A model generated the notes under the pieces. That model saw only the letters and a program-made list of their open reading frames with translations. It made no database searches and had not been told where the DNA came from. From assembly GCA_043778205.1 (NCBI GenBank), contig JAYWGO010000012.1, forward strand, positions 10,029 to 74,028: 64,000 nt of DNA, read 5' to 3'. Shown here piece after piece: positions 23,041 to 58,818 of this stretch (the stretch's first letter is position 1; every line of letters begins with the position of its first letter). The position numbers were made by a program, and so were the translations under genes. The stretch is from Polaromonas sp. Lineage in GTDB: Bacteria > Pseudomonadota > Gammaproteobacteria > Burkholderiales > Burkholderiaceae_C.

Positions 23041-24084
23041 ATGTACCACGCCGCCCCCACCCGTTACGACAGCATGCTGTACCGCAAATGCGGCCACAGT
23101 GGTCTTAAACTGCCCGCCATTTCGCTAGGCCTGTGGCACAACTTTGGCGACAGCACGCCGTTTGCGCTGCAGCGCGAGATGCTGCGCACGGCCTTTGACC
23201 TGGGGGTTACCCACTTTGACCTGGCCAACAACTACGGCCCGCCCTACGGCAGCGCCGAGACTAACTTTGGCGAACACATGCGCCGCGACTTTAGGCCCTA
23301 CCGCGACGAGCTGATTATCTCTAGCAAAGCGGGCTACGACATGTGGCCCGGCCCGTATGGCCAAGGCGGCGGCTCGCGCAAATACGTACTGGCCAGCCTA
23401 GACCAAAGCCTCAAGCGCATGGGCCTGGAGTATGTGGACATTTTTTACTCGCACCGCTTTGACCCCGACACTCCGCTGGAAGAAACCTGTGGCGCGCTGG
23501 CCACCGCCGTGCAGCAAGGCAAAGCGCTGTACGTAGGCATTAGCAGCTATAGCGCAGGCAAAACGCGCGAAGCCGCCGCCTTGCTGCGCAGCATGGGTGT
23601 GCCGCTGCGCATCCACCAGCCGTCTTACAGCTTGCTTAACCGCTGGGTTGAAGAAGACTTGCTGAACGCTCTGCAAGAGACCGGCGCAGGCTGCATCGCC
23701 TTTAGCGCGCTAGCCCAAGGCTTGCTCAGCACCAAATACCTCGGCGGCGTTCCGCAAGACGCACGCATTAACCGCCCCGGCGGTGGCTCATTCAAAAACG
23801 AACACCTGAGCGAATCCAACCTGGCGCATGTGCGCGGGCTTAACGACATCGCCCAGCAGCGCGGCCAAAGCCTGCCGCAAATGGCCGTGGCCTGGGTGCT
23901 GCGCCACCCCAGCGTAACTTCTGCTTTGATCGGCACCAGCAACGCCGCGCAAGTCACCGAGCTGGTGGGCGCGCTGGCCAAGCTGACGTTCACCACCGAC
24001 GAGCTGGCGGCCATCGACAAACTGGCCGTAGACGGTGGCATCAATTTGTGGCACCGCCCTTCAACAGACCAGGCCTTGGCTTAA
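23041..24084 (+). CDS. gpr: aldo-keto reductase, L-glyceraldehyde-3-phosphate reductase (YghZ/Gpr) type
   Basis: From MYHAAPTRYDSMLYRKCGHSGLKLPAISLGLWHNFGD onward it is collinear with my memory of E. coli YghZ (THFDLANNYGPPYGSAE, ISSKAGYDMWPGPYG, YVDIFYSHR). The 138 codons upstream of that Met in the track ORF are Arg/Gly-rich and do not look like coding sequence. Confidence 0.9.
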   Translation: MYHAAPTRYDSMLYRKCGHSGLKLPAISLGLWHNFGDSTPFALQREMLRTAFDLGVTHFDLANNYGPPYGSAETNFGEHMRRDFRPYRDELIISSKAGYDMWPGPYGQGGGSRKYVLASLDQSLKRMGLEYVDIFYSHRFDPDTPLEETCGALATAVQQGKALYVGISSYSAGKTREAAALLRSMGVPLRIHQPSYSLLNRWVEEDLLNALQETGAGCIAFSALAQGLLSTKYLGGVPQDARINRPGGGSFKNEHLSESNLAHVRGLNDIAQQRGQSLPQMAVAWVLRHPSVTSALIGTSNAAQVTELVGALAKLTFTTDELAAIDKLAVDGGINLWHRPSTDQALA

Positions 24085-24134
24085 TCAGCGCATTTTGCAT
24101 CGGCCTGTGCCCAAGAGAGCGCAAGTACAGCTAG

Positions 24135-24185
24135 TCCTAAAACTATAGCTGCTTGTGCAGCATTTCCTTGGGCCATAAGGCCAAA
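24135..24185 (+). repeat. triple-palindrome repeat element, copy 3
   Basis: AACTATAGCTGCTTGTGCAGCATTTCCTTGGGCCATAAGGCC. Confidence 0.9.
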
Positions 24186-24233
24186 GCATATAAATTTAGT
24201 CAGTTTAATGCAGTCTATTTGAAGCAAACGGCT

Positions 24234-26174
24234 TCACTTTACTTCATCCACCACCACCATCGCTGCGCCGTACGCATCAGAGCACAGGGCGTTGTTGCGG
24301 CGGGCGCTGGCGCTGGTGCATGCTTGGGTGGTGACGGTGGGGCTGGTGGACATGAGGGCGCCTAGCGCTGCGCGGCCTGCGCTGTCGTTCAGGGAGGTGA
24401 CAAAGGGGCCAGTTTTGCTGGCGGCCAGGGCGGTGAGGTCGCGCGGGCTGTCGGCTACAAAAACCAGCAGATTGTCGCGGCCTGCAGGGCCACCGGCTTT
24501 GACGCGCCAGTTGGGGCGTGGCAGGCCCAGCTGCTGGCCTGCGGCAATTTTGTTGTTTTGGTCCAGATCGTTGGGGAACAACAGGTACAGCGACTGGTTG
24601 TCCGACCCGGCCATGGCAACATAGACGTAGCCTGCGCGGTCAGACTGCACCACAAACTCTAGGCTGTCTTGGCCAATTTTAAGTTTGTCTTTGGACAGCG
24701 TAACTTGCACCCGGCGTTTGGCATCGCGCTGGTCGAACATTTGACGCAAGGCTTGCTCCCCGCTGAGGGGGGCGGGGGTGGTGACAGGAGAGGCTGCGAC
24801 CGTGGGTGCGGGGGCAGCGGGGGCAGTGATGGTCGCCGCTACTGGAGGTGCCGCAGGTGCTGCCGCTGGCAAGGCCACGGGCGCTGCCGATGCTACGGTG
24901 GCCAGCGGCGCGGTTTGGCTGAACCATGCCGGTACAAAACCGGTGTTGCCTGAAAGCTGTATGTTGTGGGCTTTGTAGTTGGCATCGTTTTTCATGCGCT
25001 GGTCAATTTTGGTTTGCGCGCATTGGCGAATTTCGTCCATGCTGATGGCACCCGAGCCGTCCAGGTCTTTGGCCTCGCGCAGCATGCAGTCGCGCATGTA
25101 CTGGGTGGCCAGGCCGCCTTTGTTGCTGTCGTCAAAGCTGATTTCGTCGTTTTTAGACGCGCTGATGTGAATGACATCTTGCGGCAGCGCGCCGGCTTGC
25201 ACTTGCTCTACCAGCAGGTTGCGGGTTTTCACGTTCACTGGGCGACCACACTCCTCGCTGATAGACGCAAACTTGGGCCGCAGCGTGCCTTCGTCGGCGG
25301 GGTTGGTAAAGCCGCGTGTGCGCACCACCGATGCGGCGTTGACAATGCCGCCAGAGTGGCATGCGTCGTACATCACAAACAGTTTGTCGGTTTTTTGGGT
25401 GATGGGGGCCAGCAAAGTGCTCATCTCGCGGTTGGTTAGCGTGCCGCTGGTGCCGCCGTCGTAGGCCAGCAGGGCCTCGATGCAGCCGCCCGCTGCGGGG
25501 TCGTTGTAGCGGGTGCCGTGGCCGCTAAAGTGCACAAACACGCGGTCGCCGTCTTGCACGCGGGCATTCATGTCGGCCAAGGCTTGGCGAATGTTGGCCC
25601 CGGTGGCCTGGCTGTCTTGCAGGTAGGTGATGTTGCTGGCGGGTACCTGCATGGCACCGGCCATTTGGGTGGCCGATTCGCGGTCGATGCGGGCACCAGG
25701 CAAGGGCGGTGTGCCTTTGTCGGCATATTCACTGATGCCGATGATGAGGGCGTGGCGGTTGCTGCGCGCAGGCAAGCTGCGCACGCCCAGCGTGAGGGCG
25801 GCGTTGACGGTGCTGCCGGTGGCCAAGCGGCCTGTGTTGGTGGCCGACACGGCTGAGCCGCCTGACTGCAAATTCAGCGCCGAAGCGCGTACCCAGCCTG
25901 CTTGGTTGGCCCCACTGCTGGCCAGCTCTACATAAGCCCAACCGCCTTCTAGGCTGAGCAGGCGCAGCGTTGCCCCGGCGGCTACCGTGCCCACCACGGC
26001 GGCACTGGGCAGCTTGTCGGCTTTAAGTTCGATGGCGCGGGCAGCAGTAGTGGTGGTAGTGGTGGTTTGGGCGTTCACGGCCAGCGTTAGCAGCAGGGCG
26101 GCGCACAGCGCAGCGATTTTTAAACGGTGTTGCAGCGGGCGGTGGGCTGGACTGTGGCTGGCGGTGAGAAACAT
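24234..26174 (-). CDS. secreted peptidase-C14 (caspase-fold) protein with an SH3b-like N-domain and a DUF4384-like C-domain
   Basis: Start chosen at MFLTASHS...LLLTLAVNAQ (signal peptide, GGAG 5 nt upstream). His context VHFSGHGTR, Cys context MYDACHSGG. SH3b-like GATLRLLSLEGGWAYVEL. C-terminal AGYVYVAMAGSDNQSLYLLFPN. Confidence 0.8.
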   Translation of the reverse strand: MFLTASHSPAHRPLQHRLKIAALCAALLLTLAVNAQTTTTTTTAARAIELKADKLPSAAVVGTVAAGATLRLLSLEGGWAYVELASSGANQAGWVRASALNLQSGGSAVSATNTGRLATGSTVNAALTLGVRSLPARSNRHALIIGISEYADKGTPPLPGARIDRESATQMAGAMQVPASNITYLQDSQATGANIRQALADMNARVQDGDRVFVHFSGHGTRYNDPAAGGCIEALLAYDGGTSGTLTNREMSTLLAPITQKTDKLFVMYDACHSGGIVNAASVVRTRGFTNPADEGTLRPKFASISEECGRPVNVKTRNLLVEQVQAGALPQDVIHISASKNDEISFDDSNKGGLATQYMRDCMLREAKDLDGSGAISMDEIRQCAQTKIDQRMKNDANYKAHNIQLSGNTGFVPAWFSQTAPLATVASAAPVALPAAAPAAPPVAATITAPAAPAPTVAASPVTTPAPLSGEQALRQMFDQRDAKRRVQVTLSKDKLKIGQDSLEFVVQSDRAGYVYVAMAGSDNQSLYLLFPNDLDQNNKIAAGQQLGLPRPNWRVKAGGPAGRDNLLVFVADSPRDLTALAASKTGPFVTSLNDSAGRAALGALMSTSPTVTTQACTSASARRNNALCSDAYGAAMVVVDEVK

Positions 26175-26202
26175 GGCGGCTCCTTGAAAATAAATAAAAA
26201 TG

Positions 26203-28161
26203 TTAACGCGCTGCGGTTTGGCTAGGCTGGCCAGGGCGGTAATCAACGCGGTGGTCGGTGCTGTGGTCGGTTGGCTGGGCGCAGACCTCGCGGGCACCCT
26301 GAGCCCAGTCGGCGCGGCTGGTGGTCTGGCTGACGGGCAGGGGCACAGAGCACGAGGTTACCCGCAGGCCGATGTGGGCACCGCGCTTGCCGCGCCTGCT
26401 GCCGTCTAGCAGCACGGTGCGCAGGCTGGCCAGCTGGGCTAACGGGCCTGCCAAGGCCACGGTGCTGTACAGCTCGGGCCAGCGCAGGCGGGCAGGCCAG
26501 GTGCAACCGGCATCGCCGCCCAGTACGCGGCACTGGGGGGCATGGCGCTGCAAGGTGTCAATCAATGCGTCCAGGCCGGGGCCGGTGGCGGGGTGCAACA
26601 AGCGCACGGCCATCAAACCATGGGGTTGGACTAAGGCAGCGTGCTCGGCCAGGGCGGTGTGGGCAGCGCTGCCAGCGGGGTCAGCAGGGCCAACGGCAGT
26701 GGCTTCTGCATCTGCATCTGCATTGCCTGCTGCATGCATGTCGCCACACCAGTAGTCGCGCCGCCAGCCATTCCACACGCGCAGCAGCCCTATGTACAGC
26801 AGCGCTACGCCCGCAGCCAAGTGCAGGTCTACGAACATGCCGCCAACATTTAGCGACACATAGCCCACAGCCAGCAGCGCACCGGGCAGCAGCAAAAGCG
26901 CTGCGTCCAGCGTGCCAATGCCGTGGCGCTGTACCCAAGCTGCCAGCCCCAGGCACAGGCCTATGGCCAAGCCCGCTTGCAGCCAGCGCGGCAGCTCAAG
27001 CAGGCTGCGTTGGTTAACCTGGTTGTCCATGGCGGTGGCCAGTATGTCGATGCCGGTGTGCTTGGTGCCCAGCGGGGTGGGGTGGATGTCGTGCAGGCTG
27101 GACGCTGTGGCCCCAATCAGCACAATTTTGCCGGCAAAGCTGGGTACCGGCTGGAGTGGCGCGCCGCCCTCGGCAGCAGCAAACACGTCGGCCAGCGGCA
27201 CGCGTGGGTAGCTGTTGGCCTGGGCCCGCCACACAATCAATGTGTCTGTGTTTTTACAGTCAAATAGGCCTATCGCCCAAGTAAATGCTACACAGTTAGC
27301 TATTAAATTAGAAGCGTTTGACGGGTGCGGTGCGGGCTGCGCAGCGGGTGCAGTGTGCGCCCCGGAGGCAGCGGGTGCACTGGGGCTGGCCACTTTGGCG
27401 GCGCTGGCAGCCACCGTGTGGGCCACGCTCACCGCCAGCGACTGCAGCGCGGTGTTGTCGCTCAAACTTTCGACCACGCGGTAGCGGCGCAGCATGCCGT
27501 CGCGGTCGGGGTAGCCGTTGTTGTAGCCCAGCTTGGCGGCAGCCACTGCAGGTAACACTGGGGCTATTAAAGCCACAGTAGCGGTGCTGTCGGCCAGGGC
27601 CAGTGCACTGGGTGCGGCGCTGCCCGCTCCTGCCCCTGCCGCTGCCCCTGCTTGCGGCGCAGAGCCCAGCCACAGGTTGGGCAATACAGCGCGGGTGACC
27701 TTGCTTTGTGCGTCGTATTCCTTGGGCAAGCGCACTACGGCAAAGTGGCTGCGCAGGCTGCGGCGGGCGGCTTCGTCAAAGGCTTTGTCACCCCCGGGCG
27801 AGAGCCGGTCGGCATCGCTGAACAGCACGTCCCAGGCAATGGCCTGCGGGTTTTGTTTTTCAATATAGTCCAGCACCGTGGCCAGTGTGTCGCGCGGCCA
27901 CGGCCAGCGGCCAAACTCGGGGGCCATGCGGGCCAGGGTGGCCTCGTCAATGTCCACAATCACCAGCCGTGGGTCGGGCGCAGCAGCCACCACGCGGGCA
28001 CGCACCATCGCGTCGTAGGTGGTGTTGGCCAAGCCGCTAGAGACCTTGAGCACCAGCGCATCGAGCAGCGCCCACACGCAAAACGCCAGCGCCAAACCCC
28101 AAGTCACGCGGGCTGCAGGCAGGCTGCCAATAGTGGCGGTGAAGCGCTGCCAAAGCTGCAT
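26203..28161 (-). CDS. CHASE2 domain membrane protein with an uncharacterised cytoplasmic C-terminal domain
   Basis: 652 aa. N-terminal TM, then VIVDIDEATL...FGRWPWPRDTLA...IAWDVLFSD (CHASE2 hallmarks), then about 3 TM helices, then about 180 aa with no recognisable kinase, GGDEF or intact cyclase motifs. Confidence 0.8.
   Translation of the reverse strand: MQLWQRFTATIGSLPAARVTWGLALAFCVWALLDALVLKVSSGLANTTYDAMVRARVVAAAPDPRLVIVDIDEATLARMAPEFGRWPWPRDTLATVLDYIEKQNPQAIAWDVLFSDADRLSPGGDKAFDEAARRSLRSHFAVVRLPKEYDAQSKVTRAVLPNLWLGSAPQAGAAAGAGAGSAAPSALALADSTATVALIAPVLPAVAAAKLGYNNGYPDRDGMLRRYRVVESLSDNTALQSLAVSVAHTVAASAAKVASPSAPAASGAHTAPAAQPAPHPSNASNLIANCVAFTWAIGLFDCKNTDTLIVWRAQANSYPRVPLADVFAAAEGGAPLQPVPSFAGKIVLIGATASSLHDIHPTPLGTKHTGIDILATAMDNQVNQRSLLELPRWLQAGLAIGLCLGLAAWVQRHGIGTLDAALLLLPGALLAVGYVSLNVGGMFVDLHLAAGVALLYIGLLRVWNGWRRDYWCGDMHAAGNADADAEATAVGPADPAGSAAHTALAEHAALVQPHGLMAVRLLHPATGPGLDALIDTLQRHAPQCRVLGGDAGCTWPARLRWPELYSTVALAGPLAQLASLRTVLLDGSRRGKRGAHIGLRVTSCSVPLPVSQTTSRADWAQGAREVCAQPTDHSTDHRVDYRPGQPSQTAAR
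27262..27311 (-). repeat. triple-palindrome repeat element, copy 4 (reverse orientation, in frame inside the CHASE2 gene)
   Basis: Reverse complement CTAATTTAATAGCTAACTGTGTAGCATTTACTTGGGCGATAGGCCTATTT, translated as NLIANCVAFTWAIGLF. Confidence 0.85.
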
Positions 28162-28170
28162 GGTGCTTTA

Positions 28171-29988
28171 TTAGCGCAGGGCCAGGCTGTCGGCGCTGCT
28201 CAGCGAGAAGCTGGTCAGCTCGTTGCGGGTGTAGCGGTCAATCTTGCCGCTGCGGTCGCGCCGCTCGTATTCATGCGCTACAAAGTTGCGCAGCGCGGGC
28301 ACATACCAATGCACGTCGCGGTATTTGAGTGTGTAGCTACTGCCGCCGTTGGTATTTTTGCCGCTGACAAAGCCGGTGTGCTCAATTTTCCAGGCCTCAA
28401 ACTCGCCAGCGGGCACCTTGATTTTCTCTAGGCCCACTACCTGCACATCGCCCTCACGAACCTCTGTGCCGCTGCCATCCGTGTTTTTCCAGTCAAGGGT
28501 GTATTTTTCTTTTTCGCTGTAGCCTGCCTTGAGCGTGGCCGGGAACAGGCGGTAGCCAGACCACTGCAAAGTGTCGCCATTTTTGTCGCGGGTGGACAGT
28601 AAAACACCGTCGGCCGTCCAGCGCACACTGCCGTTGTTGAGCGTCATATTGCCCTGTGCGTCCATGCTGGTGATGTGGCGGTCCCAGTTGTGGGTGACTT
28701 CTTGTTTGAACCGGTCAATACTTTGGTAACGCCAGCGGTCGCCCACCGTGTAGCCAAACGAGTTACTGGCCTGCACTGGTCGCGCCATGGCTGCCGGGGC
28801 GGATGCAACAATGGGTGCGGCTAAAGGCGCGGCAACCGTTGTATTGGCCACCACTACCGCTCCAGGTGTTTTCGCCAACTGCATTTGTACCAACTGCTCG
28901 CGTGCCAAAGCGCTGTAGCGCCCGCTGGGAAAGCGGTTTAAATACGCCTGCAGTTCGATCGGCACTTGCGAGTTTTTTACTGCGTCCCACAGGGCGTTTT
29001 CTACCGCTACGCTAGAGTCCACGGCCGCTGCGGTCGCCGCACTGGCCCCACCGCGAAAGTAAAAGTCGCCCTCCATCGAGGTGGCTTCCCAGGGCACTTG
29101 TTTGCCTTGGCTGTCGCGGCGCACGTTGGCGCGCACTTGCTTGAACACGTCCTCCACCTTGCTGCCGCTTTGGCGCATGGCGGTGAGCAGGTGCTGGGTG
29201 TACAGGCCATTGGCACCCGCGCCGTCGCTGGCCACTGCGCCGGGCGAGGTGGCAAAGGCCACCAGGGTACCCACGGGTGCGTCCATTTGCGCCAAACCGG
29301 CTTGGCCGCTGCGCGCGCTGCGGGTAAACGGGTTGTTGCGGCAGGCATCCAAAATCATGATGTTGGCGGCATTGCCTGCGGCCTCCATTTTGTCCAGCAC
29401 GGCCTGCGCGTCCACCGCGCTGTAGGCCACCTCGTCTTCGCGCTCCACATTGGCACCCACCGGCACCAGGTAGTTGCGGCCTTTGATCTGCATGCCGTGG
29501 CCTGCATAGTAAAACAGGCCCACCGCACCTGCGTTGTTGGGGGCGCCCGCTTTATTGGAAGCGCCACCACGCAACTTGTCGCCAAACTCGCGCAGGGCCG
29601 ACAGCATGCCGCGCTGGTCGGTGTTCTCACGCAAGATCACGGTAAAACCCGACTCTTGCAGCGCAGCCGCTACGGCGCGGGCATCGTTGACGGGGTTAAG
29701 CAGGGGCGCGTCTTTGTAAGCGGCGTTGCCAATCACCAAGGCCACGCGGGCCGTGGCTTGGCCTGAAATGGGCTTAGCCGTGTTGGGAGCCGCTGCTTGC
29801 ACCACCAGGTTGCGGTCAGGTTGGGCCGCAGTTTTAGCCGGGCCAGCTGCTGGGTTAGCGGATTGGGCCACGGCATGGGGCAGCGCACAAACACCCAACG
29901 CACCGATTGCCAGTACTATTAATTTTATAGCTGCTTGTGCAGCATTTCCTTGGGCCAAAGGGTGATTTAGCATGAAAATAGAGTGCAT
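28171..29988 (-). CDS. secreted peptidase-C14 (caspase-fold) protein with a beta-rich C-terminal domain
   Basis: Start at MHSIFMLNHPLAQGN (29988) or MLNHPL (29973). Signal peptide ...ALGVCALPHAVA-QS. His context YYAGHGMQ, Cys context ILDACRNNPF. The first 38 codons of the track ORF overlap the upstream OmpA-like gene and are rejected. Confidence 0.8.
   Translation of the reverse strand: MHSIFMLNHPLAQGNAAQAAIKLIVLAIGALGVCALPHAVAQSANPAAGPAKTAAQPDRNLVVQAAAPNTAKPISGQATARVALVIGNAAYKDAPLLNPVNDARAVAAALQESGFTVILRENTDQRGMLSALREFGDKLRGGASNKAGAPNNAGAVGLFYYAGHGMQIKGRNYLVPVGANVEREDEVAYSAVDAQAVLDKMEAAGNAANIMILDACRNNPFTRSARSGQAGLAQMDAPVGTLVAFATSPGAVASDGAGANGLYTQHLLTAMRQSGSKVEDVFKQVRANVRRDSQGKQVPWEATSMEGDFYFRGGASAATAAAVDSSVAVENALWDAVKNSQVPIELQAYLNRFPSGRYSALAREQLVQMQLAKTPGAVVVANTTVAAPLAAPIVASAPAAMARPVQASNSFGYTVGDRWRYQSIDRFKQEVTHNWDRHITSMDAQGNMTLNNGSVRWTADGVLLSTRDKNGDTLQWSGYRLFPATLKAGYSEKEKYTLDWKNTDGSGTEVREGDVQVVGLEKIKVPAGEFEAWKIEHTGFVSGKNTNGGSSYTLKYRDVHWYVPALRNFVAHEYERRDRSGKIDRYTRNELTSFSLSSADSLALR
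29914..29965 (+). repeat. triple-palindrome repeat element, copy 5 (overlaps the 5' end of the caspase gene on the opposite strand)
   Basis: GTACTATTAATTTTATAGCTGCTTGTGCAGCATTTCCTTGGGCCAAAGGGTG. Confidence 0.9.
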
Positions 29989-29992
29989 TGGA

Positions 29993-30571
29993 CTAATCGA
30001 GGTTAACGATGCGCACGCGGCGGTTCTCTGCGGCTGTGGGGTCGGTGCTGTTGGCCAGTTCGCTGGCCCCTTTGCCAGCGGTTTGCAGGCGCTGCACGGC
30101 AATGCCTTGGGCCACCAAGGTATCGCGCACTGCGTCGGCCCGCTGCTGGGACAGGCGCTGGTTGTAGTCGGCCCGGCCTGTGCCGTCGGTATGGCCTTCT
30201 ACCGCAAACTGCGACTTTACCAGCGCCTGCGACTGCAAGGCTTGGGCTAAGTTGGCCAGCGCCTGCTGGCTCTCGGGCTTGACGCGGGCCGAGTTAAAGT
30301 CAAACTGAATCAAGAGCGACAGCGATGGCTTGGGCGCAGGGGCAGCGGTTACCGAAGTGCCTGTGTTGGCAGGGCCGGCGGCCTCTACCGTCAGGTTGCG
30401 CATGCTGCGCGACAAAGGAACCGGCGGTTTTTTAAGCTGCTCGACCATTTGCTCCGCCGACGGCGTTACCGCGGTTTGCGCCCCTGCCGCAGGTGCCCAT
30501 AGCGCAGGCCCCCAAGCCGCACTGGCCAAAGCCGCCGCCACCAGGCGGCGCGCCCACATCATTGTTTGCAT
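29993..30571 (-). CDS. OmpA-family peptidoglycan-binding protein
   Basis: 192 aa. Signal peptide, then FDFNSARVKP...VEGHTDGTGRADYNQRLSQQRADAV...NRRVRIV. Confidence 0.85.
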   Translation of the reverse strand: MQTMMWARRLVAAALASAAWGPALWAPAAGAQTAVTPSAEQMVEQLKKPPVPLSRSMRNLTVEAAGPANTGTSVTAAPAPKPSLSLLIQFDFNSARVKPESQQALANLAQALQSQALVKSQFAVEGHTDGTGRADYNQRLSQQRADAVRDTLVAQGIAVQRLQTAGKGASELANSTDPTAAENRRVRIVNLD

Positions 30572-30680
30572 ACAAAGTTCCCAAAGAAATAGTACCTGCG
30601 TGGGGGTGCCTTAACCGCCCCTTCGGCGCAAGCGGCGCGCGCAGCCCACACCGCCCACGCTGTGTGTATTTTGTATGCAA
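30566..30680 (-). promoter_or_regulatory. long-range inverted repeat bracketing the 5' leader and start codon of the OmpA-like gene
   Basis: TTGCATACAAA (30566..30576, containing the start codon complement CAT at 30569..30571) is the exact reverse complement of TTTGTATGCAA (30670..30680). Confidence 0.35.
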
Positions 30681-30767
30681 TTGTCACTGAATTTAGGCTG
30701 TTTTTCCATCCCATGAATGTGGGATGCCGCAAACCGCTTTTGCAGGCAGGCATATGACAAGCCTGGC

Positions 30768-31637
30768 CTAGCCCACCATGCCGTTCCAGCCCAGCAACCC
30801 GGCTACCCAGTTCATAAAGCTGCCCGCTACCGCACAGGCCACCGACGCAGCCAGCATGGCGCGCAAACCCAAACGGTGGGTGCCCATGCCCGAGTGGGCC
30901 TGCTGCGTGCCTGGCCAAGCGTACAGCACAGCAGCGGTAACGCACACGCCCCCCAGCAGCCAGGCAGAAAACGCTGCGCGCAGCCACACCAGCGGCGGCA
31001 CACGGGCAAAAACTATGTCGATGGTGGTGCGCAGGTCGCCCACGGCCAGCACCAGCGCCGCCAGCAAGCCAAAGCCCAAGGTAAACAGCACCAGCAAGCA
31101 CGCACTGGCCGCCGCCACGGTGGCATGCGCCATGATCAGCGGCACAGCGGCGTGTGCCGCCTGGGCGGAGTGGCGGGCAATGTCTTGCATGTCAAAGTCG
31201 CCTTGCAACTCGGCCTCGGTCAGGCGAATAGCGATGTCGGGCGCGTTTTGCATGGCCATGGCTTGGGCACAGATCATGGGCGCAATTTGCACCACCCACA
31301 GTGGCCACAGCGAGGTCAAAATCAGCGACGACTGCTCTTGCAGCGTAGACGGCAGCACCACAAAAATGGCCACCCCGGCCACCAAGCCCAGCACCACCAA
31401 AATGGGCAGCATTTGGCGTATCTCGTGGTTGCGCTCGCGGTGCATGATGCTGCGCGCCACTGGTATACGCCAACAGGCGCGGTACCACCACAGCTCGCCC
31501 AGCGCGTACCAGCGCAGCTTGGCAGGGGTGAGCAGTAAAGAGTTAAGGCTTAAGCGCTCTAGCTTGCGTTCGCGCTTGAGGTCGCGGGCCCTGTCGCGCG
31601 GTGTGCTGCGGGTGGGGTCGGTTTGGCTGGTGCCCAT
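30768..31637 (-). CDS. polytopic inner-membrane protein (possible MlaE-like permease; uncertain)
   Basis: 289 aa. Charged N-terminus followed by about 5 hydrophobic helices. The two long plus-strand ORFs over the same DNA are Ser/Thr/Cys/Arg-rich antisense artefacts. Confidence 0.55.
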   Translation of the reverse strand: MGTSQTDPTRSTPRDRARDLKRERKLERLSLNSLLLTPAKLRWYALGELWWYRACWRIPVARSIMHRERNHEIRQMLPILVVLGLVAGVAIFVVLPSTLQEQSSLILTSLWPLWVVQIAPMICAQAMAMQNAPDIAIRLTEAELQGDFDMQDIARHSAQAAHAAVPLIMAHATVAAASACLLVLFTLGFGLLAALVLAVGDLRTTIDIVFARVPPLVWLRAAFSAWLLGGVCVTAAVLYAWPGTQQAHSGMGTHRLGLRAMLAASVACAVAGSFMNWVAGLLGWNGMVG

Positions 31638-31688
31638 AGTGTGTGCCTTGTACCTGCTGTGTGCCTGCGGCTGACTCTTGGTACCAGC

Positions 31689-32618
31689 CTAAGGCGCGCG
31701 GCCGGTGGACAGTGTGCGGCCTGCGGCGGCGCTGCGCTGGGCCAGGTCGCCGTAGCGGGCTGCGCCTGCGCTGTCGCCCAGTGCGCTGCTGGCACGCTGC
31801 AGCAGGTCAAGGTCAAGGGCTACGCGGTCGGCAAAGCCCAGGTCTTGGTCAAGCTGCAGGGCTTGCTGTGCGTCTACCAAGGCAGCAGCCGCTTGGCCTA
31901 GCGCGAGCTGGGCCTGGGCGCGCGCGCGCAAGGCGTTGGCGCGGTCGTTGTTAGCTTGCGCGCTGTTGGTGCTGCTCAGCTGCGCTGCGGTCAAGGCGGC
32001 GCTGGCACTGGCTGCGGCGGCAGACGGGTTGTTGGCAGCCAGCTCGGTGCGGGCGCGCAGCACCGTGATGGCCGAGCGCTGGGCGCAGGTGTTGGCGCAC
32101 AACTGCAGCGCGCTTTGCACATGGGCTGCGGCGCGCGTCACGTCACTGCCCAATGCCAGCGCAGCGGCACGGCCGTGGGCAGTGGTTTGCACGTCTACGC
32201 TCAGGCCATCGGTGTTTTGCAGCAGGTTGGCCACCAGTTTTTGCGCATCAGCCACCTGCCCGGCATCGCCCAGTGCGCGGGCTTGGCTCAGCCGGGCGCG
32301 GGCTTGCGGCTCGGGCAATGCCAAGGCTTCGTACACCAGCGCCGCCACGGCGTAGCTGGCCGCAGCGCTGGCAAAGTCGCCTGCAGCAAACGCCTGGGCC
32401 GCCCGGCGCTCGGTGCTTTTGGCACTTTTAATGGCGGCATTGTCTTGCTTCACATCGGCCGAACTTGCGCAACCGACTATTAAAAGTGGTGCAATTAATG
32501 CCGTGCACAGTTTGCGCAAAGCCCTTGCCCGTTTAGCCAGCTCTGGCTGCAGCACGGGCACGGCCTGCCCTGTGGTTTGCCTACATTCGATTGACGCATT
32601 GGGCAGAGTAGGCATCAT
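31689..32618 (-). CDS. Ala-rich helical-repeat (TPR-like) lipoprotein
   Basis: 309 aa. Lipobox LLIVGC after a basic n-region, followed by repetitive Ala/Leu-rich helical sequence. Its ATG overlaps the upstream MCE gene stop by 4 nt. Confidence 0.55.
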   Translation of the reverse strand: MMPTLPNASIECRQTTGQAVPVLQPELAKRARALRKLCTALIAPLLIVGCASSADVKQDNAAIKSAKSTERRAAQAFAAGDFASAAASYAVAALVYEALALPEPQARARLSQARALGDAGQVADAQKLVANLLQNTDGLSVDVQTTAHGRAAALALGSDVTRAAAHVQSALQLCANTCAQRSAITVLRARTELAANNPSAAAASASAALTAAQLSSTNSAQANNDRANALRARAQAQLALGQAAAALVDAQQALQLDQDLGFADRVALDLDLLQRASSALGDSAGAARYGDLAQRSAAAGRTLSTGRAP

Positions 32619-58444: not shown

Positions 58445-58520
58445 AAAAACCCCCAGCAGCGCTGGAGACAAAACCCCCAGCAGCGCTGGAGGCAAAAAAA
58501 AGCCCCAGCAGAGCTGGGGC
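58445..58520. repeat. three imperfect tandem ~24-bp units in the hemJ-hemB intergenic region
   Basis: AAAACCCCCAGCAGCGCTGGAGAC / AAAACCCCCAGCAGCGCTGGAGGC / AAAAAAAAGCCCCAGCAGAGCTGGGGC. Each unit carries a CCAGCAGCGCTGG core with the internal palindrome CAGCGCTG. Confidence 0.85.
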
Positions 58521-58818
58521 GGGAAATGCCTTTTTTGTTGTCACACATCGAGGCACCCGCTCAGGGAGGAAAAGCGGGAAGTGGCGAACCACTCACTATC
58601 AAATATAACAAACACACCAGCGAATTACAAGGCGGCAAATTGTTAAATTTGGCTAGCAGGTAGCACCAATTGTTATAGAGTCTCGCGCGAGACAGCTAGA
58701 CGCGCATGGGGCTGTGGTTTGCGCAGAGTGGTTATTACTTAAAATCATTAGACAAACAAATGCCAGCCAACCAAGCGCCACAGCATGGCCATAAGTCTGT
58801 CCAACCTTGGGGCTCTGA

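Follow-up and report, generated by a model that had tools for sequence, protein, structure and literature searches.

The stretch of Polaromonas sp. DNA analysed here (contig JAYWGO010000012.1; 64,000 nucleotides, referred to below as the window) contains a four-gene locus at 24234-30571 in which a CHASE2 membrane protein is encoded together with an OmpA-like protein and two proteases of the caspase fold (peptidase C14) predicted to be exported, named here Casp1 and Casp2. Pfam, NCBIfam, Rfam, PADLOC, tblastn and Foldseek were applied to it. The comparison with related loci indicates that the conserved unit consists of the genes for the OmpA-like protein, the CHASE2 protein and Casp2, and that Casp1 is an accessory to this unit. 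The four genes are as follows.

29993-30571, minus strand: OmpA-like gene, 192 amino acid residues; Pfam OmpA
28171-29988 (or with the start at 29973), minus strand: Casp1 gene, 605 residues (or 600); Pfam Peptidase_C14
26203-28161, minus strand: CHASE2 gene, 652 residues; Pfam CHASE2
24234-26174, minus strand: Casp2 gene, 646 residues; Pfam Peptidase_C14 and DUF4384

All four open reading frames (ORFs) lie on the minus strand in the order OmpA-like, Casp1, CHASE2, Casp2, with spacings of 4, 9 and 28 nucleotides. This arrangement had been described earlier from the letters of the DNA alone (the sequence-only reading), and the ORF coordinates agree with it. From the tight gaps in the window and the overlapping genes in its relatives, the four genes are predicted to form one operon.

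The conservation of the locus was followed by a pattern scan in which each GTDB species was represented by one genome; it gave 180 genomes with a relative of the CHASE2 protein. The locus counts were taken from the best 80 of these, using tblastn of the window sub-domains against the related loci and, separately, ORF clustering. The best 80 come from Polaromonas, Rhodoferax, Variovorax, Limnohabitans, Brachymonas, Ramlibacter and unclassified Comamonadaceae or Burkholderiales, and also contain one "Cytophagales" metagenome-assembled genome (MAG), which is probably mis-binned. The window itself is identical to a metagenome contig in ENA, and a Polaromonas MAG has about 90% protein identity to it. 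Casp2 with its DUF4384 domain is found downstream of CHASE2 in all 62 loci with enough sequence (within 1 kb in 58), and the OmpA-like gene is located upstream of CHASE2 in 68 of 76 loci, being directly adjacent in 48. The order seen in the window, with the Casp1 gene between the OmpA-like and CHASE2 genes, occurs in 16 of the 76. A Casp1-like paralogue is present in 27 of the 36 loci having at least 6 kb on both sides. Its position varies. Some loci have it between the OmpA-like and CHASE2 genes, others 5' of the OmpA-like gene or 3' of Casp2, and it can form arrays of up to four members; other loci, for example in Rhodoferax bucti and Limnohabitans isolate genomes, lack it.

These counts define OmpA-CHASE2-Casp2 as the conserved unit. 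The exact order of all four genes characterises a subclade, and Casp1 is a mobile accessory, one of several interchangeable exported caspase-fold proteases that include the CHAT proteins described below. The expectation that the four genes would occur together in other genomes thus held for the three-gene core and only in part for Casp1. Because the flanking genes differ among clades, the linkage of the module is not merely the common ancestry of a bigger block. The median identities to the window proteins, by tblastn, are listed here.

Casp2 C14 domain: 76%
DUF4384 domain of Casp2: 72%
OmpA-like protein: 59%
CHASE2 ectodomain: 55%
CHASE2 cytoplasmic tail: 46%
Casp1 barrel: 38%

Of the proteins of the module, Casp2 is conserved most strongly. 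It consists of a signal peptide, an SH3b-like domain (about residues 44-100), the C14 domain (residues 140-378), an Ala/Pro-rich linker and DUF4384 (residues 499-577). The matches to Peptidase_C14 (PF00656; 6.6e-22, 78.8 bits) and DUF4384 (PF14326; 4.2e-14, 52.8 bits against a cut-off of 27) bear out the assignment of both domains in the sequence-only reading. For the SH3b-like domain proposed at the same time, the SH3_3 match is sub-threshold in this protein (1.1e-3, 19.5 bits against a cut-off of 27), and precomputed SH3_3 or SH3_4 matches (PF08239, PF06347) are recorded for several orthologues. The fragments HFSGHGTR and YDACHSGG align with HYSGHGTR and DSCHSGG of AtMC4, which together with Yca1 is the closest protein of solved structure. 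The dyad residues H219 and C272 are invariant in an alignment of 42 orthologues. Six more Cys residues besides the catalytic C272 are invariant in the same alignment; this is consistent with disulfides formed in the periplasm, an oxidising compartment. The N-terminus has the features of a signal peptide with a predicted cleavage site of the AxA type, VNA|QT.

A further feature of Casp2 is found inside its metacaspase-like domain.

25032-25067, minus strand: EF-hand-like 12-residue loop DLDGSGAISMDE, Casp2 residues 370-381

Residues D370, D372, S374, G375, S378 and E381 of this loop are invariant, and its sequence fits the canonical pattern DxDxSGxIxxxE. It is located between two helices, each of which contains an invariant Cys residue (Cys363 and Cys385). 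The Pfam search with this segment gave four EF-hand families only, all sub-threshold, the best being EF-hand_5 at 7e-4. Metacaspases are typically Ca2+-dependent. The conserved loop suggests that Casp2 may be a Ca2+-regulated periplasmic metacaspase.

The CHASE2 protein matches PF05226 at 6.7e-48 (163.9 bits). Hydropathy and the AlphaFold2 model (mean predicted local distance difference test score, pLDDT, of 78; predicted template modelling score of 0.75) place transmembrane helices at about residues 16-38, 392-413, 415-438 and 447-471. The chain therefore consists of one N-terminal transmembrane helix, a periplasmic CHASE2 domain (residues 33-407), three further helices and a cytoplasmic tail, and the earlier description as a CHASE2 membrane protein is confirmed. 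The periplasmic part of the model contains disordered loops at residues 168-187, 277-293 and 360-367. Foldseek of the model against the PDB gave nothing better than E = 0.26, so that no similar solved structure was found for the ectodomain. A homology search with this protein found hundreds of full-length relatives bearing only PF05226.

It is important to consider the cytoplasmic side of this protein, which the sequence-only reading had taken to be without any recognisable signalling output. For the known output domains this is correct, as no cyclase, HisKA/HATPase, GGDEF/EAL or Ser/Thr kinase domain was found by Pfam or NCBIfam. It is not correct for the tail as a whole, since a conserved domain is present there.

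26272-26634, minus strand: ferredoxin-like cytoplasmic domain of the CHASE2 protein, about residues 510-630, defined by conservation and the AlphaFold2 model

The conserved segment of about 100 residues has the form LDxLIxxLExHAPxCRVxGGDAxxxWPxxLRWPEL...GP, and its invariant residues include L530, D550, W555, P556, W561, P562 and G572. The AlphaFold2 model gives it a beta-alpha-beta...beta-alpha-beta fold. Foldseek found only a weak resemblance, apparently of this part of the model, to the ferredoxin-like folds of ACT, CutA and PII-like proteins. A phmmer search of 1.84 billion cluster representatives returned 22 matches, with lengths and positions fitting members of the same family or their fragments. 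The domain is apparently specific to this family and absent from other architectures. Canonical CHASE2 proteins of the other kind, with class III adenylate/guanylate cyclase domains, are encoded less than 10 kb from the output-less CHASE2 gene in two related loci (L058, 14801-16741, minus strand; L050, 18140-20281). The two types of CHASE2 protein thus coexist in these genomes.

The identification of the third member of the core as an OmpA-like peptidoglycan-binding protein is supported by a Pfam OmpA match (PF00691) at 6.6e-23 and 81.3 bits. The OmpA_C-like domain is C-terminal (residues 90-184) and has the conserved family motifs TD..G....N..LS..RA (GHTDGTGRADYNQRLSQQRA) and NRRV (NRRVRI). 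The NCBIfam matches of the YiaD, YfiB and PA1041 types are all below their cut-offs, and no equivalog can be assigned. A signal peptide with cleavage at AGA|QT is predicted. The protein has no Cys residue and is therefore not a lipoprotein. In the linker, the motif QLK....SRSMRNLxVE at residues 40-62 is retained among 59 orthologues and the rest is variable. The Arg-containing part of this motif, SRSMRNL, may be a docking or cleavage site for Arg-specific proteases.

Casp1 consists of a signal peptide, a C14 domain (residues 81-310, with H164 and C216), a helical linker and a C-terminal beta-barrel. The Peptidase_C14 match is strong (1.8e-38, 133 bits against a cut-off of 21.4), the fragments YYAGHG and ILDACRN align with YYAGHG and LLDMCRK of MALT1, and the His/Cys dyad is invariant across 57 homologues, in agreement with the intact catalytic contexts noted previously. 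In the Foldseek search the Casp1 model, in which the catalytic domain has moderate pLDDT, matched MALT1 at 2.8e-7 and caspases at 1e-5 to 1e-4, which supports a caspase-hemoglobinase fold. The dyads of both proteases, on which the sequence-only reading had staked its C14 assignments, are aligned with the catalytic positions of solved homologues. As Casp1 is closest to MALT1 and Casp2 to AtMC4 and Yca1, the two appear to represent different branches of the C14 family, both seemingly catalytically competent. Casp1 also begins with a basic and hydrophobic segment followed by an AxA-type site, AVA|QS, so that export is predicted for both proteases, as had been proposed.

The C-terminal domain of Casp1 had been left unassigned. 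Its fold allows an assignment to be made.

28174-28776, minus strand: DUF3108/YmcC-like beta-barrel of Casp1, about residues 405-605, from the AlphaFold2 model and Foldseek

The final 195 residues or so form an all-beta model with pLDDT above 90, and Foldseek matched this barrel to 4fvs (4.5e-8), 3fzx (1.3e-6) and E. coli YmcC, 2in5 (4.3e-6). By sequence, the match to DUF3108_like (PF21347; 0.0037, 17.6 bits against a cut-off of 27) is sub-threshold, and longer Casp1 homologues with a duplicated barrel bear both PF11306 and PF21347. On the modelled fold and these longer homologues the domain is assigned as a DUF3108/YmcC-like beta-barrel. The duplicated form was observed in the homologues of loci L018, L019, L034, L036, L044 and L054.

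Additional genes adjoin the core in the related loci. A lipoprotein of about 165 residues (family f5) occurs in 25 loci, where its gene always directly precedes that of the OmpA-like protein (for example L067, 8897-9394), and a secreted protein of about 165 residues (family f4) occurs in 32 loci, always encoded just 3' of Casp2 (for example L067, 13468-13959). Pfam and NCBIfam gave no family for either of them; both may be substrates or adaptors of the module. A third family, found next to the core in 21 loci, consists of proteins of about 1000 residues with a signal peptide, tetratricopeptide repeats (TPR) and a CHAT domain (PF12770, 1.3e-42). Its gene often overlaps the neighbouring gene by 4 nucleotides.

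L056, 5866-8829: TPR-CHAT gene
L067, 14014-17007: TPR-CHAT gene
L085, 14045-20084: TPR-CHAT coding region
18 other loci: TPR-CHAT genes (some of the 21 loci have them in tandem)

CHAT proteins also belong to the caspase-fold proteases, and the recurrent theme is therefore that exported proteases of this fold are encoded around a CHASE2 protein. Tandem arrays of two to four more C14 paralogues downstream of Casp2 were seen in the Comamonadaceae MAG loci L023 (13540-19210), L032, L033, L039 and L042. In the 64-kb window there are no f4, f5, CHAT or further caspase genes.

It is useful to compare this module with systems already described. Other bacteria have proteins in which CHASE2 and a caspase domain are fused, for example an orthocaspase of Trichodesmium erythraeum and the EACC2-caspase-CHASE2 proteins of TRADD-N conflict systems (PMC3501461, PMC2853523, PMC8195603). 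These fusions and the present module have in common a C14 protease coupled to a CHASE2 protein with one plus three transmembrane helices, and all are known from sequence analysis alone. However, in the fusions a single polypeptide carries an N-terminal, cytoplasmic caspase, while in the module the caspases are separate proteins with signal peptides, predicted to share the periplasm with the CHASE2 domain; the obligatory OmpA-like wall-binding partner is also a feature of the module when set against the fusions. The module is thus a further form of the predicted caspase-CHASE2 association, with the opposite protease topology and an obligatory wall-binding partner. A survey of 2012 recorded OmpA domains in 14 metacaspase operons and did not analyse them further (PMC3501461). 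No description or test of an OmpA-Casp1-CHASE2-Casp2 operon was found in the open-access literature, and PADLOC gave no system match; to this extent the earlier statement that no characterised system has such an architecture can be upheld.

The 'BiofilmReg' operon of Burkholderia encodes a CHASE2 histidine kinase, a LysM-FecR periplasmic protein and a response regulator (PMC5192318). It resembles the module in pairing, in a betaproteobacterium, the gene for a CHASE2 membrane protein with one for an exported protein that binds peptidoglycan. However, it has PAS-HisKA-HATPase domains and a response regulator and no protease, while the module has caspases and neither kinase nor regulator. In the YfiBNR (TpbB) system, the OmpA/Pal-like YfiB and the periplasmic YfiR are combined with the membrane diguanylate cyclase YfiN. 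The shared logic is that an OmpA-like wall-binding protein and a periplasmic intermediary act on a signalling protein of the inner membrane and so report the state of the envelope. The differences are that YfiB is a lipoprotein, YfiR is a repressor without catalytic activity, a GGDEF domain provides the output and there is no CHASE2 domain or protease; the match of the module protein to the YfiB model is below its cut-off.

By analogy with the closest solved homologues, MALT1 for Casp1 and AtMC4 and Yca1 for Casp2, specificity for a basic P1 residue and dependence on Ca2+ would be expected. The eukaryotic proteins MALT1, AtMC4, Yca1 and TbMCA2 are cytosolic, while Casp1 and Casp2 are predicted to be exported and bear the YmcC-like barrel or the SH3b-like and DUF4384 domains. 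In the type III-E CRISPR Craspase, the TPR-CHAT protein Csx29 cleaves Csx30 (bioRxiv 10.1101/2022.08.17.504292). It is alike in using a caspase-fold protease with regulated cleavage as its output, and relatives of the module encode TPR-CHAT proteins. However, Craspase works in the cytoplasm, is guided by RNA and has a sigma factor coupled to it, and none of these components is present in the module.

These features allow us to propose, at somewhat less than even confidence, that the module forms a protease complex tethered to peptidoglycan in the periplasm, with the CHASE2 protein as its membrane regulatory subunit and proteolysis as its output. The CHASE2 ectodomain would be the membrane-anchored, ligand-sensing regulatory subunit of one or both proteases, while the complex would be anchored to the cell wall by the OmpA-like protein and by the SH3b-like domain of Casp2. 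The output would be a regulated cleavage of envelope proteins after Arg or Lys, and no second messenger would be made. Binding of Ca2+ to the EF-hand-like loop of Casp2 would probably aid its activation, as in eukaryotic metacaspases, and the accessory proteases would add to the proteolytic output of Casp2. The ferredoxin/ACT-like tail probably serves in oligomerisation, or in passing a cytoplasmic cue to the periplasmic side. This model is favoured because there is no cytoplasmic enzyme, because CHASE2-caspase fusions exist elsewhere and because Casp2 is the most and the tail the least conserved part. The gradient of identity from Casp2 through the periplasmic part of CHASE2 to the tail would fit Casp2 being the effector, with a conserved substrate. 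The strict synteny across several genera, the recurrence of exported caspase-fold proteases at the locus and the CHASE2 kinases encoded beside a wall-binding partner (PMC5192318) also count in its favour.

Several points weigh against this proposal. Everything in it beyond the anatomy and the synteny rests on inference. The catalytic Cys residues would need protection in the oxidising periplasm, and both the EF-hand and the SH3b assignments of Casp2 are sub-threshold in Pfam. The known caspase-CHASE2 fusions place the caspase in the cytoplasm, on the other side of the membrane (PMC3501461, PMC8195603). In addition, the invariant residues of the tail argue for transmission to or from the cytoplasm, and they would suit equally well an arrangement in which the proteases act upstream of the CHASE2 protein.

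Such an arrangement is the main alternative, although we regard it as rather doubtful. Envelope damage or Ca2+ would activate the caspases, a cleaved periplasmic protein or the cleaved CHASE2 ectodomain would be sensed, and the tail would signal to a partner encoded elsewhere in the genome. It might be likened to the plant metacaspase-4/PROPEP1/PEPR receptor pathway, or to envelope stress pathways based on regulated proteolysis. The best argument for it is the conserved tail itself, with its invariant Asp, Trp, Pro and Gly residues. The loops modelled as disordered in the CHASE2 domain could be the cleavage sites, and in all its other settings CHASE2 is an input domain (PMC5192318, PMC8195603). 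However, ORF clustering gave no family of transcription factors, sigma factors or further cytoplasmic partners that the loci share, and the tail is less conserved than Casp2 and the CHASE2 ectodomain and is unlike any known output domain.

The strong conservation of Casp2 across genera might also be explained by a housekeeping function, an explanation that we consider unlikely. Casp2, alone or together with Casp1 and CHAT proteins, would process or ligate envelope proteins during their maturation or turnover, and the CHASE2 and OmpA-like proteins would be scaffolds or substrates; the processing could be a transpeptidation in the manner of legumain, GPI8 or PorU. The genomic context agrees with this. 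The genes 5' of the module (argS and genes for a SPOR protein, DsbA and an MlaD protein) are an ordinary chromosomal set, the Casp2 gene is followed on its 3' side by a convergent aldo/keto reductase gene and then by genes for a major facilitator superfamily transporter, an SNF2 helicase and lipA, and tblastn of the CHASE2 protein against the PLSDB plasmids gave no match. The wall-binding OmpA and SH3b-like modules and the small exported f4 and f5 proteins of the relatives would have a place in such a pathway as well. However, a candidate substrate bearing a recognisable sorting signal was not found, a variable number of accessory proteases would be unusual in a core biogenesis pathway, and among the loci examined the module seems limited to one family, which argues against essential machinery.

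A role in programmed cell death or anti-phage defence, in which CHASE2 would sense the attack and the caspases would trigger lysis from the periplasm, appears quite unlikely. Several bacterial conflict systems use proteases of the caspase fold as effectors (PMC8195603; bioRxiv 10.1101/2022.08.17.504292), and the paralogue arrays and variable accessory genes resemble diversifying systems. However, PADLOC gave only generic caspase and ZorB/MotB OmpA-domain matches and none for the CHASE2 protein. The flanks described above are of the housekeeping kind, with no defence island and no plasmid copies. The core proteins show high conservation, and almost all of the best 80 loci belong to Comamonadaceae. 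The generic matches, the context and the conservation of Casp2 argue against a fast-evolving defence island; a function is not thereby established.

Finally, it is highly improbable that the CHASE2 protein is a decayed CHASE2-adenylate cyclase with a cyclase-fold remnant as its tail and only a secondary link to the proteases: JGI labels many homologues 'adenylate cyclase', the beta-alpha-beta-beta-alpha-beta core of the modelled tail resembles a cyclase palm, and the sole hhalign segment places LDxLIxxLExHAPxCRVxGGDA on the helix and IGDA segment of the co-resident CHASE2-cyclases, but the hhalign probability against the cyclase domains of those two loci is 2.5%, no cyclase was matched by Pfam or NCBIfam or found among the top 50 Foldseek matches listed, the tail has about 100 residues and no cyclase motifs compared with about 190 for a cyclase, and the strict synteny would be left unexplained even if this were right. 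The reading of the tail as a cyclase remnant is not supported.

The remaining features of the locus and its surroundings are the following. Expression of the predicted operon would start in the intergenic stretch 5' of the OmpA-like gene.

30572-30767, minus strand: presumed operon promoter region, 196 nucleotides; the neighbouring ORF ends at 30768

A scan of 23900-31000 for sigma-70 consensus promoters gave 0 sites, and for this reason the promoter is inferred only. Two ORFs at 30768-32618 (minus strand), of 289 residues (very hydrophobic) and 309 residues, are located between the MlaD-domain gene and the OmpA-like gene. Neither was assigned to a family by Pfam or NCBIfam. Polaromonas-type loci have both of them in the corresponding place, 5' of the OmpA-like gene (as ORF families 22 and 24), and they may belong either to the MlaD operon or to the module. 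The Rfam scan of the whole window gave no match inside the operon. It found an anti-hemB small RNA (Burkholderia RNA 7, RF02837) at 58494-58580 on the minus strand, with 63.7 bits, in keeping with an origin from Burkholderiales.

A dispersed repeat resembling repetitive extragenic palindromic (REP) elements or miniature inverted-repeat transposable elements (MITE) was also observed. It has a 24-nucleotide core, GCTGCTTGTGCAGCATTTCCTTGG, and two short palindromes, the whole element being about 60-70 nucleotides. Nine copies with at most 3 mismatches occur in the 64 kb, compared with 0 expected from shuffles. Among 85 loci, an exact match was found only in the window's own contigs.

5248, 9489, 24148, 29930, 47722, 62670 and 63653, plus strand: positions of repeat cores (24 nucleotides)
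16084 and 47303, minus strand: positions of repeat cores (24 nucleotides)
29930-29953, plus strand: core of the copy over the 5' end of Casp1 (element about 29912-29979)
24148-24171, plus strand: core of the copy 3' of the Casp2 stop codon, inside a 149-nucleotide gap

The copy over Casp1 provides the ATG at 29973, which is the start in the public gene call, and about the first 20 codons of Casp1. The copy 3' of Casp2 contains a short hairpin that was flagged as terminator-like; terminator-like matches are not in excess over shuffles. A reading of the repeat as a sigma-54 promoter was rejected by eye, the spacing being off by one and the copies lying in both orientations.

So far, the module is one more conserved neighbourhood restricted to one bacterial family. 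To our knowledge, bacterial caspase homologues are abundant, almost none of them has a known substrate, and the exported ones are essentially unstudied. The ligand and mechanism of CHASE2 were called unknown as of 2016 (PMC5192318). Because its CHASE2 protein has no cytoplasmic enzyme, the module isolates the CHASE2 domain together with its likely direct partners. The three-gene core is present in at least 62 genomes, including those of culturable Rhodoferax, Limnohabitans and Variovorax isolates, and offers a compact genetic and biochemical system. It is an entry to the questions of what CHASE2 senses, what the exported caspases of bacteria do, how CHASE2 talks to a protease and whether proteolysis may serve as the output of a bacterial receptor. 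If the function were a housekeeping one, the module would define a new pathway of envelope-protein processing.

The boldest form of the proposal, to which we would give only a small chance, is an extracytoplasmic caspase cascade in Comamonadaceae, in which CHASE2 would be the membrane receptor or activation platform for wall-tethered, Ca2+-gated meta- and paracaspases and the signal would consist purely of periplasmic proteolysis. CHASE2 would then not be a small-molecule sensor feeding a cytoplasmic enzyme, and CHAT proteases would join the cascade in some genomes. If true, bacteria would have an equivalent of damage-activated metacaspase signalling, and a first function would be assigned both to CHASE2 and to the exported bacterial caspases.

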